IMG/VR virus record: IMGVR_UViG_2703718778_000014
DNA from: a virus
Taxonomy: Duplodnaviria; Heunggongvirae; Uroviricota; Caudoviricetes
Length of the DNA: 23,312 nucleotides
Direction: 5' to 3' (one strand)
The first letter of the stretch is position 1. Every line of letters begins with the position of its first letter. Both the position numbers and the translations under genes were made by a program. Positions 5,290-21,891 of the stretch are shown here, one piece after another. Under the pieces are notes generated by a model that saw only the letters and a program-made list of their open reading frames with translations, was not told the DNA's origin and ran no database searches.

Positions 5290-6348
5290 TCATCCGTTCT
5301 GGCTGGCTAAATCCTGAACTTCCCTGACCGTCTGCTCAAAACGTTCAGTCTCCAGCTCAACGCCTGTAGCACGACGCCCCAACACCATCGCTGCTTTGAC
5401 TGTCGAACCCGACCCCATGAAGAAATCTGCAACCAGGTCACCCGGACGACTGCTCGCACTGATTATCTGCTGCAGCATTTCTGCCGGTTTTTCGCACGGA
5501 TGTTTCCCGGGATAGTACTGCACCGGTTTATGCGTCCACACATCGGTGTACGGCACCCGCACCGTCACACCGAAATACCGCCGCAGATGCTTATATTCAC
5601 TCTGCAGTTCCGTATACTGCCGGTTCAGTTCACTGTATGTGCTGACCAGTTGGTGATGTGGCTTTTCCAGTTCTCCGCGCTGATGCTTCTCTTCTGCCAC
5701 CCGGGCAAACAGCGCCTGTAATTTCAGATAATCGCTTTCGTCCGGTAACTGCCACTGGCTGGCACTGAACCAGTGCGACACCATATTTTTCTTTCCTGTG
5801 GCATCCACTATCTGTTTTGCCGTTATCCCCAGGGCAGCACGCGCATCACGAAAGTAAGAAATCAGCGGGGCCATCACATGCTGTTTCAGTGCCCTGCCCT
5901 TCGCCTCATACCCGGCATCTTTCGGGCGATACGGCCCCTGATAATGTTCCGCGAACAGAATGCGCTCTGTGGCGGGGAAATACGCCCTCAGGCTTTCCTT
6001 GTTGCACCCGTTCCAGCGTCCGGACGGCTTTGCCCAGATAATATGGTTCAGCACACTGAAGTGTTCACGCATCATGATTTCGATATCAGATGCCAGGCGA
6101 TGGCCACAGAACAGGTAAAGACTTCCGGCAGGTTTCAGCACCCGCCAGAACTGCGCAAGACACTGGTCCAGCCACTTCAGGTAATCATCGTCGCCCTTCC
6201 ACTGGTTATCCCAGCCCTCAGGCTTCACTTTAAAGTACGGCGGGTCCGTGACTATCAGATCAACAGAATTTTCGGGTAACGACCGGATAAATTCCAGGCA
6301 GTCAGCGTTGATTAACTCACAACTGGATATTTTTACAGTGTTAAGCAT
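5290..6348 (-). CDS. DNA methyltransferase, N6-adenine/N4-cytosine family (DPPY motif), 352 aa
   Basis: ATG at 6348; motif IV DPPY near the N-terminus (LIVTDPPYF) and motif I FxGxG near the C-terminus (DFFMGSGST), i.e. beta-class order; position after Q and before tRNAs as in Stx-type phages. Confidence 0.8.
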   Translation of the reverse strand: MLNTVKISSCELINADCLEFIRSLPENSVDLIVTDPPYFKVKPEGWDNQWKGDDDYLKWLDQCLAQFWRVLKPAGSLYLFCGHRLASDIEIMMREHFSVLNHIIWAKPSGRWNGCNKESLRAYFPATERILFAEHYQGPYRPKDAGYEAKGRALKQHVMAPLISYFRDARAALGITAKQIVDATGKKNMVSHWFSASQWQLPDESDYLKLQALFARVAEEKHQRGELEKPHHQLVSTYSELNRQYTELQSEYKHLRRYFGVTVRVPYTDVWTHKPVQYYPGKHPCEKPAEMLQQIISASSRPGDLVADFFMGSGSTVKAAMVLGRRATGVELETERFEQTVREVQDLASQNG

Positions 6349-6486
6349 GGATCATTAAGCCTGTCTCTGATAGGCTCATTCTGCTTTTGCGCAAAGCAGT
6401 GGGCCTGAGGTTTGCTTGTGATCCTGACGCATGAGCAGATGGCTGGTGAGTGCCCCTAACACCCACCAGCCGCCCATTTACCACAA

Positions 6487-6512
6487 ATAAAAAAGCCTTC
6501 AGGACTGAAGGC
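6487..6512 (-). terminator. Intrinsic terminator (minus strand), third of a stack
   Basis: Stem gccttcag (6495-6502) / tgaaggc (6506-6512); minus-sense transcript is followed by TTTTTTATTT. Confidence 0.4.
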
Positions 6513-6546
6513 GTCTGTAACAACCGAACTGATAGTCTGCCAGCCC

Positions 6547-6569
6547 AAAAAAAACCCGCCAGTGGCGGG
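6547..6569 (-). terminator. Intrinsic terminator (minus strand), second of a stack
   Basis: Stem cccgcc (6555-6560) / ggcggg (6564-6569) preceded on the plus strand by A8 (6547-6554), i.e. T8 after the hairpin on the minus strand. Confidence 0.45.
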
Positions 6570-6773
6570 GATCTTTTGATAAAAACGACAAAGGCACCAT
6601 TAAGGTGCCTTTTACACAGGGCAGCAGGCTTGTCATCACCTTATTGCTACTCCTGGCTTCCAGTTCGGAAGTCTCACAAGTCCCATCAGGGTACAGCGAC
6701 AGTATCAGTCAACACTCTATGATTCTGCTGAACAGGCAGTTTCGCACTGTACATTATAACCTGTTAAGCCAAC

Positions 6774-6795
6774 AAAAAACCCGCTCGGCGGCGGG
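6774..6795 (-). terminator. tR'-like intrinsic terminator downstream of the candidate late promoter
   Basis: Stem cccgc (6780-6784) / gcggg (6791-6795), loop tcggcg, followed on the minus strand by TTTTTTG (6774-6779). Confidence 0.4.
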
Positions 6796-6849
6796 GTTTG
6801 CTTACTTTGCCATCGCGAACAAAATCTGCAAAATATCAGATTTACACGG

Positions 6850-6878
6850 AATATATGCTCTTCAGTTCTATTTTGCAA
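6850..6878 (-). promoter_or_regulatory. Candidate late promoter pR' just after the Q gene
   Basis: On the minus strand: -35 TTGCAA (6878-6873), 17-nt spacer, -10 TATATT (6855-6850); about 60-75 nt upstream of the tR'-like terminator, as in the lambda pR'-tR' arrangement. Confidence 0.3.
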
Positions 6879-7551
6879 GATATGGTTCTAAATTAATCGA
6901 CTTTTGCCGTGAACGTACCCGCATTACTGAAATAAGAGCATCCCTGTCCAGCATCTCTGCACTACCCCGCATAGCCAACCAGTGAGGCCTGTGTGTTTTT
7001 GTCCATGTAGATTTAGCAACTCCTATGAACACCGCTAACTCCTGATGTTCATAGGTCTCACGCCCTGCCAGCTCACTCTTCACATCCTGTGCCGCCAGCC
7101 AAATCAGTTTCTTCAGACGATCCAGCGTTTTCCCTGCAATTTTTCTGGTACCAGCCTGAGCTTTAAACTCACCCCATACCCATTGTGTTATAGTGACCTG
7201 ATCTTCCCAGCAAACATTTCCACTGTAGCACCACAGTAACCACGCCTTCTGATGTTCTTCCAGTTCCAGAACGGCACGCCGCCACGATGATGTTGCAAAC
7301 TCAACCGGACTGACCAGCGCAATTGATGAGCCTTTCGCCAGTGATTGTTTACCCGGGATCGGTTGATTATCCCGCGTGATCATTTTTCCGGTTACCTCAT
7401 CGCGATAACGAATTTTTTTGCGTCTGTAACACCCTGTATCGAACAGGGCATTCTCCTGCCAGGCTTCCAGCTGGCCTTTTGTCGCCCCACTGAGATCCGC
7501 AGTGGCAATCATGAGTTGCTCACGAACAAACTGTAAATACTGGTTATTCAT
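6868..7551 (-). CDS. Late antiterminator Q-like protein (QuuQ/YdfT-like family by position and size)
   Basis: ATG at 7551 overlaps the rusA stop (ATGA); sits between rusA and the pR'/terminator region as Q does in lambdoid phages. Family assignment is from gene order and recalled Qin-prophage context, not a motif match. Confidence 0.5.
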   Translation of the reverse strand: MNNQYLQFVREQLMIATADLSGATKGQLEAWQENALFDTGCYRRKKIRYRDEVTGKMITRDNQPIPGKQSLAKGSSIALVSPVEFATSSWRRAVLELEEHQKAWLLWCYSGNVCWEDQVTITQWVWGEFKAQAGTRKIAGKTLDRLKKLIWLAAQDVKSELAGRETYEHQELAVFIGVAKSTWTKTHRPHWLAMRGSAEMLDRDALISVMRVRSRQKSINLEPYLAK

Positions 7552-7907
7552 GCGCACTCCAGTTCTGTGATTTTTATCCCCAGCCGCCCGCCAGGAACAG
7601 GCAGGCCACGCACAATATTGATTTCATCAAACTGCTCATCGTCCATTAACAACCCCGCATGCGTAAGCGCATCCAGCGGCGCTTTCAGAATATTGTCCAG
7701 GTCACGGCGGCGCTTATCCGGTGGCTCTGCAATAATCCTGATTACCAGCCTTCCGGACAGGCTTAATTTCAGCCGCTGCTGGTTAACAATAAGCGCCACA
7801 GCACGGCGATAGCGCTTTCCCTCCTCCGAGATAAAATATGTGCTGCCACGACGACGCCAGTAGGTGTTCACCGTTGGCGGGTAAGGTAAAACCAAATCTA
7901 TGAGCAT
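7548..7907 (-). CDS. rusA: Holliday junction resolvase RusA (119 aa)
   Basis: ATG at 7907 with RBS GAGGTG; conserved RusA blocks PPTVNTYW, DKRRRDLDN and GGRLGIKITE. Confidence 0.8.
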   Translation of the reverse strand: MLIDLVLPYPPTVNTYWRRRGSTYFISEEGKRYRRAVALIVNQQRLKLSLSGRLVIRIIAEPPDKRRRDLDNILKAPLDALTHAGLLMDDEQFDEINIVRGLPVPGGRLGIKITELECA

Positions 7908-9415: not shown

Positions 9416-10642
9416 ATGTCAGGAACCATAACAAAAATCAGCACAGGGGAAAATGTTCTGTCAGCAGCAATCCATCGCATTGAATGGTTGTTCGAAACGT
9501 TTAATGAGGTCTGCTTGTCTTTTTCTGGTGGCAAAGACTCTACTGTGCTTTTCCATCTTGTGGCAGAAGTCGCCAGTAGAAAAAAACGTCGTTTTTCGGT
9601 TTTATTCATTGACTGGGAAGCCCAATATCAGTGCACGATTAATCATATCCAAAAGATGAGGGAAATGTACCGGCATGTGACAGACAATTTTTACTGGGTA
9701 GCGCTTCCTCTGACTACGGTAAATGGCGTCTCTCAGTTTCAGCCAGAATGGATATGTTGGGAGCCAGGTGTAGAATGGGTTCGTCAGCCACCAGATGACG
9801 CTATTACAGATATGTCGTATTTCCCATTTTATCGGTATGCCATGACGTTTGAAGAATTTGTTCCGGCATTTTCTTCCTGGTTTGCCGGTAACCGATGTGG
9901 AGTGGGAATACTAACTGGTGTTCGTGCTGATGAATCGCTCAATCGCTTTATGGGACTGGTGTCTCAGCGCAAACTGAGATATGCAGATGATAAACCCTGG
10001 AGCACCGCTTCACCCGATGGTTTTTACTACACCATGTATCCATTGTATGACTGGAAAACAAATGATATATGGACGTATAACTCAAGAACCCGCGCCATCT
10101 ACAATCCCCTGTACGACCTAATGTACCGTGCCGGAGTGTCGTTACGCAACATGCGTGTTTGTGAGCCCTTTGGCCCGGAACAGCGTAAGGGGCTGTGGCT
10201 TTACCATGTTCTGGAGCCGGAAACCTGGGCCAGGATGTGTGAGCGAGTGTCAGGGGCTGCCAGTGGCGCTCTTTATGCCAATGAAAGCGGTGCCTATTTT
10301 GCTCTGCGTAAACGAATCACAAAACCGGCTCATCATACCTGGCGCAGCTACGCAATGTTCATGCTGGATGTTATGCCAGAAAGAACAGCAGAACATTACC
10401 GTAACAAAATTGCAGTCTACCTGCGCTGGTATCAGACGCGGGGCTTCCCGGATGATATCCCGGATGAACAGGAGAATGACCTGGGGAGCCGGGATATCCC
10501 GTCCTGGCGACGTATCTGTAAGACGCTCATAAAGAATGACTTCTGGTGCCGGACCCTCTCCTTCAGTCCGAACAAACCCCGGCACTATGAGCGTTATCTG
10601 CAACGAATGAAGGAAAGGAGGAAAGAATGGGGGATTCTGTGA
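9416..10642 (+). CDS. ibrA: PAPS-reductase-like PP-loop ATP pyrophosphatase (IbrA-like, DndC-like fold), 408 aa
   Basis: PP-loop motif SFSGGKDS near the N-terminus; 3' end overlaps the next gene by 16 nt. Confidence 0.65.
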   Translation: MSGTITKISTGENVLSAAIHRIEWLFETFNEVCLSFSGGKDSTVLFHLVAEVASRKKRRFSVLFIDWEAQYQCTINHIQKMREMYRHVTDNFYWVALPLTTVNGVSQFQPEWICWEPGVEWVRQPPDDAITDMSYFPFYRYAMTFEEFVPAFSSWFAGNRCGVGILTGVRADESLNRFMGLVSQRKLRYADDKPWSTASPDGFYYTMYPLYDWKTNDIWTYNSRTRAIYNPLYDLMYRAGVSLRNMRVCEPFGPEQRKGLWLYHVLEPETWARMCERVSGAASGALYANESGAYFALRKRITKPAHHTWRSYAMFMLDVMPERTAEHYRNKIAVYLRWYQTRGFPDDIPDEQENDLGSRDIPSWRRICKTLIKNDFWCRTLSFSPNKPRHYERYLQRMKERRKEWGIL

Positions 10643-11271
10643 CGCCTGAGATGGATGTACTAAGCAACATGATTCGTCAGTACTTCAGTCGGGAACAGCC
10701 CGAAGAAGAGTCCATACGAGCCCTTAACCATCTGCGCAGGGTACTGCATGAAGTCAGTCCTTTTGCACAGGAGCCTGTAGACTGTGTGCTGTGGGTGAAA
10801 GCGGATGAGGTGGTAGCCAACGATTATAACCCCAATGTCATGGCACCAAGTGAGAAGAAACTGCTGAAGCAGTCACTGGAAAAAGATGGTTTCACACAAC
10901 CGGTGGTGGTGTCAGAGGAGAAGAATCATTATCTGGTGGTGGATGGTTTTCATCGTCAGTTATTGGGCAGAGAATCAGTTACAGGAAAACGTCTGAGGGG
11001 CTGGCTGCCTGTAGCCTGTATTAATCCAGAGAGAAAAGGGCAAGCCGCACGCATTGCCGCAACCATTCGACATAACCGGGCTAGGGGGAAACACCAGATA
11101 GACTCAGTGTCTGATATTGTAAGAGATCTTTCACGCTTGGGATGGGCAGATGAACGCATTGGCACTGAGTTGGGTATGGATCAGGATGAAGTACTGAGAC
11201 TTAAACAAATTAGCGGGCTAACTGAGTTATTTCAGGAAGTGGATTTCAGCCCGGCATGGACAGTTAAATAG
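10627..11271 (+). CDS. ibrB: ParB N-terminal-domain (ParB/sulfiredoxin-like nuclease) protein (IbrB-like), 214 aa
   Basis: Strong RBS AAGGAGG; ParB-box-like HYLVVDGFHR and basic TIRHNRARG block; translationally coupled to the upstream gene. Confidence 0.65.
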   Translation: MGDSVTPEMDVLSNMIRQYFSREQPEEESIRALNHLRRVLHEVSPFAQEPVDCVLWVKADEVVANDYNPNVMAPSEKKLLKQSLEKDGFTQPVVVSEEKNHYLVVDGFHRQLLGRESVTGKRLRGWLPVACINPERKGQAARIAATIRHNRARGKHQIDSVSDIVRDLSRLGWADERIGTELGMDQDEVLRLKQISGLTELFQEVDFSPAWTVK

Positions 11272-19419: not shown

Positions 19420-21891
19420 ATGAATAAAATCTTTATTTGCGCTGCTATTCCTGACGAACAGGCCATAGAAGAAGATAGCGCTGTTGCGGTGGCCACTGCC
19501 ATTGAAGCCGGTGATGAGCGTCGCGCACGCGCAAAATTTCACTGGCAATTTCTGGAGCAATTCCCGGCAGCTCAGGACTGCGCTTATAAATTTATTGTCT
19601 GCGAGGATAAACCCAGTATACCCCGCCCTGCCCTCGATTCCTGGGATACCGAATATATGCAGGAAAACCGCTGGGATGAGGAGTCTGCGTCCTTTGTCCC
19701 GGTCGAACCCGAATCCGATCCGATGAACGTCACTTTTGACAATCTGGCCCCTGAAGTACAGAACGCCGTCATGGTTAAGTTCGACGCATGTGAAAACATC
19801 ACTGTTGATATGGTGATTAGCGCTCAGGAATTGTTGCAGGAAGACATGGCAACATTCGACGGCCATATCGTTGAAGCGTTGATGAAGATGCCAGAAGTTA
19901 ACGCCATGTATCCGGAGCTTAAGCTGCATGCCATCGGGTGGGTTAAGCATAAATGTAAACCTGCTGCTAAATGGCCCGAAATTCAGGCAGAGATGCGCAT
20001 CTGGAAAAAACGTCGCGAAAGTGAACGCAAGGAAACCGGGAAATACATATCTGTCGTTGATATCGCCCGTTCCAGAGTAAACCAACAGAACACTGAAAAC
20101 GCTGCTGAAAAAACCGGGGCTGTCACTGTTGCCGTTCGCCGCGAATACAAACAGACATGGAAAACACTCGACAATGAACTGGCCTGCGCCCTCTGGCCCG
20201 GTGATGTGGATGCAGGAAACATTGACGGTACCATCCATCGCTGGGCGACAAATGAGGTTATCGACAAGGATCGCGAAGACTGGAAGCGTATCTCAGCATC
20301 AATGCGCAAACAGCCCGAAGCACTTGCCTATGACCGTCAGACTATTTTTGGCCTTGTTCGCGAACGTCCGATCGATATTCACAAAGATCCCGTTGCACTG
20401 AACAAATATATCAGCGAATACCTGACGACAAAGGGCGTGTTTGAACATGAAGAAACAGACCAGAGCTCTGCTGATGCTCTCCAGTCACCAGCAGCACAAA
20501 CTGCTCCAGTGGAGACGGCAGAATCCGATACTCAAAAAAATGAAATCCTGGTGGAAGCTGAACCATCTGTAGAGCGTGAAGGACCATTTTATTTCGTCTT
20601 TACCGATAAGGGCGGGGAAAAATACGGCAGGGCAAACAAACTTTCTGGTCTGGACAGGGCGCTGGCTGCCGGCGGTACCGAAATCTCAAAAGAAGAATAT
20701 TTTGCCCGAAAAAATGGCACATACACGGGCTTACCGCAAAATGTGGATAGCACTGAAGATTCCGAACAACCAGAGCCGGTAAAAGTTACCGCTGACGAAG
20801 TAAACAAAATTATGCAGGCAGCCAATATCAGCCAGCCTGACGCCGATAAATTGCTTGCTGCATCACGTGGTGAATTTGTTGAAGGGATTAGCGACCCGGA
20901 TGATCCGAAATGGGTGAAAGGGATCCAGAGTCGCGACGCTGAGGACCAGAATCAGCCCAACGTGAAACAAAATGAGCCAGAAGCGGAACAAAACAGCCCG
21001 GATACGCAACAAAACGGGCCAGAAGAACAACAACCAGAACCAGCAGTGCAACAGGAACTGGAAAAAGTTTGCACCGCATGCGGTCAGACCGGTGGCGGCA
21101 ACTGTCCTGACTGTGGTGCGGTGATGGGGAACGCAACCTACCAGGAAACATTCGATGAAGAAAATCAGGCTGAAGCTCAGGAAAATGATCCGGAGGAAAT
21201 GGAAGGCACTGAACATCTGCACAAGGAGAACACTGTCAGCGATCAGTATCACGCCAGCGATAATAAAACTGGCGAAACAGCAAATCCCTTAATTAAAGTG
21301 AACGGTCATCATGAAACCACATCCACCAGCAGGTTGTGGCACCATCTGATGATTGACCTTGAAACAATGGGAAAAAATCCTGATGCGCCAATAAACGCTA
21401 TAGCCGGTAAGTTTTTTGATCCGGCAACCGGAGAGATGGGGCCAGAATTCAGCAAAACTATCGATCTGGAAACCGCAGGCGGGGTCATCGATCGGGACAC
21501 CATTAAGTGGTGGCTGAAACAGTCACGCGAAGCACAATCCGCCATTCTGACCGATGAAATCCCGTTGGATGATGCACTGCTGCAATTCCGGGAATTTATC
21601 GACGAAAACTCCGGTGAATTTTTTGTTCAGGTCTGGGGTAACGGTGCAACTTTCGACAACGTGATTTTACGCCGTTCATATGAACGGCAGGGGATCCCCT
21701 GCCCGTGGCGTTACACCAATGATCGCGATGTAAGAACGATGGTTGCTCTGGGACTGGTGATGGATTTCGACGCAAGAACGACTATTCCATTCGAAGGTGA
21801 ACGCCATAACGCGCTGCACGATGCGCGTTACCAAGCAAAATACGTTTCAGCCATCTGGCAAAAACTGATCCCGAGTCAGGCTGATTTTTAA
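19420..21891 (+). CDS. Large phage protein with C-terminal DEDDh (DnaQ-like) 3'-5' exonuclease domain, 823 aa
   Basis: RBS GAGGT; C-terminal motifs MIDLET (Exo I), WGNGATFD (Exo II), HNALHDARY (Exo III, DEDDh type); acidic low-complexity middle region with a CxxC-x7-CxxC zinc-ribbon-like motif (KVCTACGQTGGGNCPDCG). Confidence 0.65.
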   Translation: MNKIFICAAIPDEQAIEEDSAVAVATAIEAGDERRARAKFHWQFLEQFPAAQDCAYKFIVCEDKPSIPRPALDSWDTEYMQENRWDEESASFVPVEPESDPMNVTFDNLAPEVQNAVMVKFDACENITVDMVISAQELLQEDMATFDGHIVEALMKMPEVNAMYPELKLHAIGWVKHKCKPAAKWPEIQAEMRIWKKRRESERKETGKYISVVDIARSRVNQQNTENAAEKTGAVTVAVRREYKQTWKTLDNELACALWPGDVDAGNIDGTIHRWATNEVIDKDREDWKRISASMRKQPEALAYDRQTIFGLVRERPIDIHKDPVALNKYISEYLTTKGVFEHEETDQSSADALQSPAAQTAPVETAESDTQKNEILVEAEPSVEREGPFYFVFTDKGGEKYGRANKLSGLDRALAAGGTEISKEEYFARKNGTYTGLPQNVDSTEDSEQPEPVKVTADEVNKIMQAANISQPDADKLLAASRGEFVEGISDPDDPKWVKGIQSRDAEDQNQPNVKQNEPEAEQNSPDTQQNGPEEQQPEPAVQQELEKVCTACGQTGGGNCPDCGAVMGNATYQETFDEENQAEAQENDPEEMEGTEHLHKENTVSDQYHASDNKTGETANPLIKVNGHHETTSTSRLWHHLMIDLETMGKNPDAPINAIAGKFFDPATGEMGPEFSKTIDLETAGGVIDRDTIKWWLKQSREAQSAILTDEIPLDDALLQFREFIDENSGEFFVQVWGNGATFDNVILRRSYERQGIPCPWRYTNDRDVRTMVALGLVMDFDARTTIPFEGERHNALHDARYQAKYVSAIWQKLIPSQADF

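Follow-up and report, generated by a model that had tools for sequence, protein, structure and literature searches.

Three unrelated families of Q antiterminators are distinguished, those of phages lambda, 21/933W and 82 (2019 preprint 10.1101/651190), and the Q-binding element has been placed between -35 and -10 (PMC4914094). StxS, IsrK and lambda 6S RNA are short RNAs that arise from an antiterminated late promoter and end at the terminator tR' (PMC7547250, PMC4825925). The stretch 3' of the Q-antiterminated promoter PR' is known to take up additional cassettes and small RNA (sRNA) genes (PMC4104026), and independent small transcription units with a promoter and terminator of their own have been described as insertions downstream of Q, ahead of the lysis genes (PMC4104026; Zhu et al., 2026, preprint). 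Here we analyzed a viral DNA of 23,312 nucleotides (nt) (IMG/VR virus record IMGVR_UViG_2703718778_000014, hereafter the window), which is a lambdoid, Stx-phage-like Escherichia coli prophage with its late region on the minus strand. The element under study is the interval directly after the Q gene (6878-6487), in which an earlier note had seen a sigma70-like promoter followed by a stack of terminators that would act as a barrier and make late expression strictly dependent on Q. Our analysis indicates that this interval very probably holds a late switch of the Q82 type together with three further terminators (T2, T3 and T4) left over from decayed cassettes, and that T2 belongs to a conserved structured RNA, termed X in this study, which is linked to a PemK/MazF-like toxin.

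Q82-Type Late Promoter and Predicted Leader RNA

The gene that precedes the interval encodes a Q antiterminator of the 82 family (Table 1), with 69.3% identity to Q of phage 82 (X92588) and 69.6% to Q of phage 434, which is annotated as "Q82-like." Its open reading frame (ORF) starts with GTG in the window, and relatives are annotated from an ATG at 7551. A sequence search of solved structures in the PDB returned no match for this protein at E <= 1. Compared with phage 434 and E. coli 2012EL-2448 (L002), the C-terminal third of Q diverges, in parallel with a divergence of the promoter spacer.

The promoter that had been proposed right after Q, TTGCAA-17-TATATT on the minus strand, was found, and we refer to it as pR'. 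Its start overlaps the last codons of the Q ORF, with the Q stop codon TAG (6870-6868) falling in the spacer. Nine of its 12 hexamer positions match the consensus, and the significance of pR' derives from its position and homology rather than from this match. In alignment A2, pR' corresponds hexamer for hexamer to the promoters of phage 434, PPompW, and other Q82-type prophages, and the -35 TTGCAA, the -10 TATAYT, the early transcribed region and the terminator are conserved with phage 434 and PPompW-type prophages. The promoter of phage 434, TTGCAA-17-TATACT, was recovered when 434 was scanned in the same way. By analogy with the described late promoters, the spacer of pR' is presumed to hold the Q-binding element.

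The sequence features of an 82-type, sigma70-dependent pause element are also present near the promoter. At the published 82 pR', the transcript begins with AAA, the extended -10-like pause element is closer to consensus than that of lambda, and a discriminator GCC at +15-17 is followed by an AT-rich stretch at +18-25, a pause at +25/26 and a U at the RNA end (PMC5001585). All of these features lie at the expected positions in the window, where the predicted start (AAA) is followed by TG at 6838-6837 (+6/7), TATTTT at 6835-6830 (+9-14), the discriminator at 6829-6827 (+15-17), an AT-rich tract and a predicted pause at +25, corresponding to T6819; they are conserved in alignment A2. The sole difference is a natural +17A, the discriminator reading GCA in the window versus GCC in L002, PPompW and the published phage 82.

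The first terminator (T1), located about 70 nt downstream, is homologous to the terminator annotated in phage 434 (L003 2239-2264). The succession of Q, pR' and tR' described by the earlier note is therefore backed by homology to phages 434 and 82 and not by a consensus match alone. Judged from the sequence, the promoter, the pause region and the first terminator form a Q82-type lambdoid late switch, a new member of a known family.

Transcription from pR' to T1 is predicted to yield a leader RNA of about 71 nt, which would be made constitutively in the lysogen. A terminator placed so as to yield a leader of roughly 60-70 nt would be a feature in common with the late switch of phages 82 and 434. 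By analogy, this RNA would fall in the class of StxS, IsrK and lambda 6S RNA: it would likewise be a short RNA produced constitutively from the late promoter, of similar length (a predicted 71 nt or so in the window versus 74-77 nt) and with a U-rich tract and a terminator at its end. Different from StxS, it comes from another Q family, and it is not a member of the Rfam families isrJ or isrK, since its matches stayed below the gathering scores (21.5 bits versus 37 for isrJ, RF01393; 14.1 and 19.8 bits versus 50 for isrK, RF01394). In the sub-threshold isrJ match, the 5' UGUAAAUCUGAUAU is identical. The suggestion that this stretch of some 300 nt could encode a short RNA has thus held up, as it contains both the predicted leader RNA and a copy of the conserved structured RNA X.

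A scheme that agrees with these features can be drawn from the published 82 system. The promoter pR' would fire constitutively from A6843, sigma70 would re-bind the extended -10-like element at +6 to +14, and RNA polymerase would pause near +25. Without Q, transcription would stop at tR' (T1, at about 6774) and leave the leader RNA. Once Q had bound its promoter-embedded site and been loaded onto the paused polymerase, T1 to T4 and three terminators of downstream STnc100 sRNA genes would be ignored, and the Q-modified transcription would run through the methylase gene, the tRNAs and the STnc100 RNAs to the lysis and structural genes. Late operons of lambdoid phages are normally all strictly dependent on Q, and a stack of terminators is not needed for this.

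Probable Mosaic Origin of the Terminators

Four minus-strand sites that combine a hairpin with a T-run were identified (6795-6780, 6612-6590, 6569-6555, and 6512-6495). They include the tR'-like terminator at 6774-6795 and the two strong terminators at 6547-6569 and 6487-6512 that had been listed before, all on the minus strand. The hairpin at 6593-6609, previously described as bidirectional, is a terminator on the minus strand (T2); on the plus strand it is weak, with only TTTTAC after the stem, and no plus-strand terminator was called. Nine terminator-like sites were detected between 5500 and 8000, versus 2.2 +/- 1.3 in shuffled sequences. There is next to no chance that the hairpins play no part in termination and are accidental inverted repeats or repeat elements of a generic kind. 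Such a view could draw on the false positives of simple scans, 19 of which are expected per 20 kb of shuffled sequence, but it is contradicted by the local enrichment, by the long T-runs at all sites, by the match of T1 to the annotated terminator of 434, by the covariation of T2 as a helix, and by the position of T4 directly after a stop codon in relatives. Applied to lambda, the same scan called no terminator between pR' and S and missed the lambda tR', and it is therefore unusable for a comparison with lambda. Tandem terminators in the lambda late operon are said to have been reported by Luk and Szybalski in 1983.

In E. coli, the best matches to the interval are broken into two or three pieces, and each of T2, T3, and T4 forms the 3' terminus of its own module, which is found independently in other settings. 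For T4, the closest relative is S19-651 (L001), which is 99.8% identical to the window but has 271 extra base pairs (bp) between T3 and T4 (alignment A1). This segment carries a gene for a 65-amino-acid (aa) protein (WP_000917768, PHROG 331) whose stop codon lies inside the T4 hairpin. Only the 3' remnant of this gene is left in the window (Table 1), and the junction of the 271-bp deletion lies at about 6546/6547. As a contiguous sequence, the T3-T4 junction of the window was found in none of the 5,426 complete E. coli genomes.

The module that ends in T2 is more complete in 2012EL-2448 and SE11 (L007), in which a PemK/MazF-like toxin gene (PF02452, 133 aa) is located between tR' and the T2-bearing segment. 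The window and L002 share the 5' flank of this cassette up to ...CAGAATCAT, after which the toxin gene follows in L002 and the spacer of the X promoter in the window. The junction of this deletion of about 540 bp is found at a CAT microhomology (6721-6719). Just past tR', a perfect TATAAT (6758-6753, minus strand) is present without a recognizable -35; in relatives this motif stands ahead of the PemK-like toxin gene and could be its promoter, and in the window it would read into the orphan copy of X.

T3, with its 3' flank, shows homology to the tR' of late promoters associated with lambda-family Q proteins (PF03589), as seen in alignment A4 with E. coli O157 SS TX 313-1 (L010), Ecol_517 (L009), and E9 (L008). 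The E9 genome encodes a lambda-family Q (PF03589, 273 aa) and a late promoter TTGATT-16-TAAATT with the lambda pause element AACGATGGG. The same promoter occurs in O157 SS TX 313-1 and Ecol_517, where it leads into a leader of about 66 nt ending in a tR' hairpin that aligns with T3. The window shares only T3 and the 3' flank with this module, whereas its promoter, pause element and Q gene are absent. The lambda-family modules are found at L008 1420-1646 and at about 1215-1290 in L010 and L009. For the leader of about 66 nt, the first 98 nt were matched in 2,525 of the 5,426 complete genomes, and a duplex prediction against hha, made for this RNA as a candidate for the published HnrS, was uninformative.

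T1 to T4 are adjacent because of the two deletions (about 540 bp and 271 bp), and the stack gives the impression of having arisen by chance through mosaic decay rather than as a designed barrier. Under this explanation, T2 would be the end of an X cassette from which the larger deletion removed the partner toxin gene and the -35 of X, T3 would be a tR'-type linker terminator of the kind found in prophages with a lambda-family Q, and T4 would be the former end of the 65-aa gene, of which 271 bp were lost. T2, T3, and T4 probably still terminate and would thereby insulate the methylase and tRNA genes to some degree in the lysogen.

We consider it improbable that the tandem terminators were selected as a barrier to tighten Q dependence. 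It is true that all four are on the late strand within 310 nt, each with a good stem and a T-run, and that tandem terminators would cut leak-through in the lysogen. However, each terminator is part of a separate module that is found alone elsewhere, the closest relatives have gene-bearing segments of 271 bp and about 540 bp between them, and the exact juxtaposition occurs in 0 of the 5,426 complete genomes. Phage 434, with a Q of the same type, has a single terminator before the next gene, a membrane-protein gene, where the window has cassette remnants and three more terminators. The multi-terminator barrier of the earlier note is for these reasons not retained.

Several points weigh against a Q82-type switch followed by leftover terminators. 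The strength of the promoter, the pausing and how efficiently each terminator works are predictions, and promoter activity and read-through by Q are likewise what we infer. The match of the promoter to consensus is by itself at chance level (five such sites versus 3.0 +/- 1.9 expected), and the spacer that is presumed to hold the Q-binding element is unlike those of 434 and L002 at several positions. The window also carries +17A in the discriminator, a change that halved the pause half-life in vitro when introduced as a mutation at 82 pR' (PMC5001585). Finally, deletion in the window, as opposed to insertion in the relatives, is deduced from the truncated gene and the promoter remnants and not from a phylogeny.

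If the switch itself is standard and the stack of terminators a by-product of cassette decay, the finding matters little as it was first described. It may serve as a worked example of an insertion-prone region past pR' that gathers small transcription units and then erodes them, with their terminators left behind, and as a caution for inferring regulation from terminator counts.

A Structured RNA Linked to a PemK/MazF-Like Toxin

The segment that ends in T2 (6694-6581) has a folding z-score of -5. A covariance model of X (R1), built from nine distinct sequences (alignment A6), matches the window copy with 137.6 bits (E about 1e-30). The fold consists of five helices, a conserved unpaired ACUUGUGAGA, a GAUGACAA loop and an own terminator at the end, and the window copy fits it. 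On an alignment of 18 sequences, 98.4% of the cells pair. Both sides have changed in 19 of the 29 base pairs, versus 5.3 +/- 1.8 in shuffled alignments (0 of 500) and 4-7 in slid controls; in the T2 helix, which is helix 5 of X, six of eight pairs covary. In divergent homologues, T2 takes the form of a GC-rich stem followed by UUUGUUUUU.

This pattern of change also bears on whether the interval encodes small proteins, namely in minus-strand ORFs at 6878-6717 and 6523-6341, plus-strand ORFs at 6450-6722 and 6605-6985, and a GTG-initiated ORF inside X. ORFs of 53-126 aa do exist, and a 65-aa ORF inside X was annotated by PGAP in some relatives. Nevertheless, a Pfam search with the two minus-strand ORFs found no match, they are unannotated in relatives, a 1-nt indel shifts the frame of the ORF inside X between close relatives, and the substitutions in X are compensatory in stems and not codon-like. 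We judge these small ORFs to be non-coding, and a protein-coding role of the interval to be very unlikely.

X was identified in 37 of the 5,426 complete E. coli genomes; none was found in phage records, and an exact-pattern scan of one genome per species gave no matches. A pattern scan of viral contigs together with a search using the toxin protein as query yielded 25 toxin loci, in which toxin identity ranges from 100% down to 44%. Each toxin locus searched with model R1 yielded X on the strand of the toxin gene, at 47-145 bits, and all 25 loci appear to carry it, counting the 18 that were searched and their near-identical duplicates. Where measured, X starts 16-81 nt past the end of the toxin match. 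A promoter TTGAC[AT]-17-[GA]ATACT is present at a fixed distance upstream of X in six of ten loci inspected (L030, L043, L039, L040, L045, and L046), ending 6-7 nt before the RNA, and its spacer has diverged. It is degenerate in L049 and L050, and L047/L048 have the -10 only. X is thus a real RNA family linked to a PemK/MazF-like toxin.

No match to X was obtained in Rfam at either gathering or permissive thresholds, and its sequence string was not found in papers; a search of the toxin-antitoxin literature gave general reviews, none of them on a toxin-X module. Similar to AgvB/AsxR, STnc100/PasD, and HnrS, X is a small unit with its own promoter and terminator downstream of PR', where the window itself has three copies of STnc100. 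X differs from these sRNAs in that it matches none of them, is rare, and goes together with a PemK-like toxin gene in every toxin locus tested. What looks new at this locus is confined to X and its association with a toxin next to which no gene for a protein antitoxin is found.

In L002 and L018, the 100-160 nt upstream of the toxin gene contain no protein antitoxin gene. PADLOC returned nothing meaningful for the toxin and the 65-aa protein, and the toxin was left without a match. There is a resemblance, and only that, to type III toxin-antitoxin systems (ToxIN, CptIN, and TenpIN), in which an endoribonuclease-like toxin likewise stands beside a separately terminated structured RNA. Type III systems have a tandem-repeat array upstream of the toxin, whereas X is single-copy and non-repetitive, lies downstream of the toxin and has its own promoter. 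We tentatively raise the possibility, which we hold to be rather doubtful, that X and the toxin form a two-part, non-repetitive type-III-like module, borne as an inserted cassette by the late region of lambdoid prophages, in which X is the antidote or a regulator, the window holding a toxin-less relic with a crippled promoter or an "antidote-only" copy. If it is true that X neutralizes or controls the toxin, this would be a new way to pair a MazF-fold toxin with an RNA.

Two forms of pairing with the toxin mRNA were considered and set aside. As a whole-RNA antisense, X formed duplexes with the toxin mRNA that were no better than those of shuffled sequences. A 13-bp match between a seed in X and the 5' untranslated region (UTR) of the toxin is found in the E. 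coli type (E = -17.5, reached by about 1% of shuffles); it is not conserved in the divergent loci and was rejected as a general mechanism.

The toxin was not detected in the window by tblastn. The window and the S19-651 type have kept the -10 and the RNA body of X and lost the toxin gene and the -35. Nine of the listed complete E. coli genomes (H127-H135) and three viral contigs share this arrangement without the toxin. It is possible, though not likely, that the orphan X is still made and functional here, either as an sRNA or as an antitoxin-only, "anti-addiction" element, and this would be compatible with a late switch followed by the terminators of decayed cassettes. Its transcripts could then be driven by the retained -10 or the TATAAT at 6758-6753, or result from read-through at tR'. 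The intact body, with its high score in R1, and the retained -10 and terminator speak for such a function, as does the occurrence of the arrangement in those genomes and contigs, which means that it has persisted. Against it stand the replacement of the -35 by the deletion junction, the absence of a minus-strand promoter call at X in the scan, and a one-base deletion beside helix 3 relative to most homologues.

Two further contexts were found in which X is present and the toxin is absent. In E9 it is inserted in the lambda-type leader, lengthening this to about 190 nt. In E. coli A34 (L006 1490-1600 and 1249-1342), a divergent copy (103 bits) is flanked by a Panacea-domain gene and parDE, no PemK-like gene being present in the vicinity, and a second, weak X-like match (22 bits) is found 150 nt upstream of it. 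In L018 (2023-2421), the toxin ORF has an internal stop codon and X is intact, another case in which the toxin has decayed and the RNA has been kept. About 750 nt downstream of the divergent toxin-X module of L047, a C4 antisense RNA (RF01695, 52 bits) was identified at 2757-2867, and this copy may sit in a different kind of phage.

Gene Order of the Late Region

The features of the window are compiled in Table 1.

Table 1. Features of the late region and of the promoter-terminator interval, in the order of minus-strand transcription.
Feature	Position	Strand	Details
DUF968 gene	8969-7920	minus	
RusA gene	7907-7548	minus	
Q antiterminator, Q82 family	6868-7557	minus	229-aa ORF from GTG; PF06323, 295 bits; PHROG 304, anti-termination protein Q-like
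Promoter and terminator interval	6878-6487	minus	Directly after Q
Late promoter pR'	6850-6878	minus	-35 TTGCAA 6878-6873, 17-nt spacer, -10 TATATT 6855-6850; from scan and homology
Initial transcribed region	6819-6843	minus	Predicted start A6843 (AAA), read from the sequence
Predicted pR'-tR' leader RNA, about 71 nt	6773-6843	minus	From the predicted start site and T1
T1 (tR'), putative cognate terminator of the Q82-type module	6774-6795	minus	CCCGCCGCCGAGCGGG + TTTTTTG; hairpin 6795-6780; -11.0 kcal/mol
Remnant 5' flank of the PemK/MazF-toxin cassette	6723-6773	minus	Common to L002
Orphan copy of X	6581-6706	minus	-10 GATACT 6706-6701; RNA body 6694-6581, about 113 nt; -35 and toxin gene missing
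T2	6582-6612	minus	AAAGGCACC-TTAAT-GGTGCCTTT + GTCGTTTTT; -16.2 kcal/mol, z -5.4 for the isolated hairpin; helix 5 of X plus U-tract
T3	6547-6569	minus	CCCGCC-ACT-GGCGGG + T8; -11.3 kcal/mol, z -2.4 for the isolated hairpin; tR'-type
3' remnant of the 65-aa gene, with T4	6487-6546	minus	Last 15 or so codons kept, stop TGA 6501-6499; alignment A1 with S19-651
T4	6487-6512	minus	GCCTTCAG-TCC-TGAAGGC + TTTTTTATTT; -10.5 kcal/mol, z -3.4 for the isolated hairpin; end of the 65-aa gene
N6/N4 DNA methyltransferase	5290-6348	minus	First intact gene past the terminators
tRNA, anticodon CAT	5249-5174	minus	Met by ARAGORN; RefSeq homologue in relatives is tRNA-Ile
tRNA-Arg(TCG)	5164-5088	minus	
TolA-C-like ORF, 142 aa	4809-4381	minus	TolA C-terminal domain PF06519, 79 bits
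Three tandem STnc100 sRNA copies (RF02076)	4274-4062, 3592-3397, 3332-3131	minus	172, 121 and 164 bits
DUF1737/SASA sialate-esterase-domain ORF	924-2912	minus	
DUF1378 and DUF826	777-288	minus	

Between T4 and the methyltransferase gene, the leader at 6486-6349 (minus strand) contains long hairpins (-59 kcal/mol, z -4.3) and could represent a structured 5' UTR. More than 1,400 complete E. coli genomes match the T4-adjacent segment that immediately precedes this leader. Further downstream, the TolA-C-like ORF is placed in the late leader region of the prophage, and the three STnc100 copies sit between it and the sialate-esterase-domain ORF. Each of these copies has its own intrinsic terminator at the 3' end (4092-4073, 3424-3405, and 3162-3141); STnc100 is related to PasD (Zhu et al., 2026, preprint).

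Two observations concern the early region on the plus strand. A PAPS-reductase/DUF3440 protein is encoded within 9416-11271 and is followed by an ORF whose only match, to ParB-N, is below threshold (20 bits versus a cut-off of 26.3). At 19420-21891, an 823-aa protein is encoded that has a C-terminal Rv2179c-like 3'-5' exoribonuclease domain.

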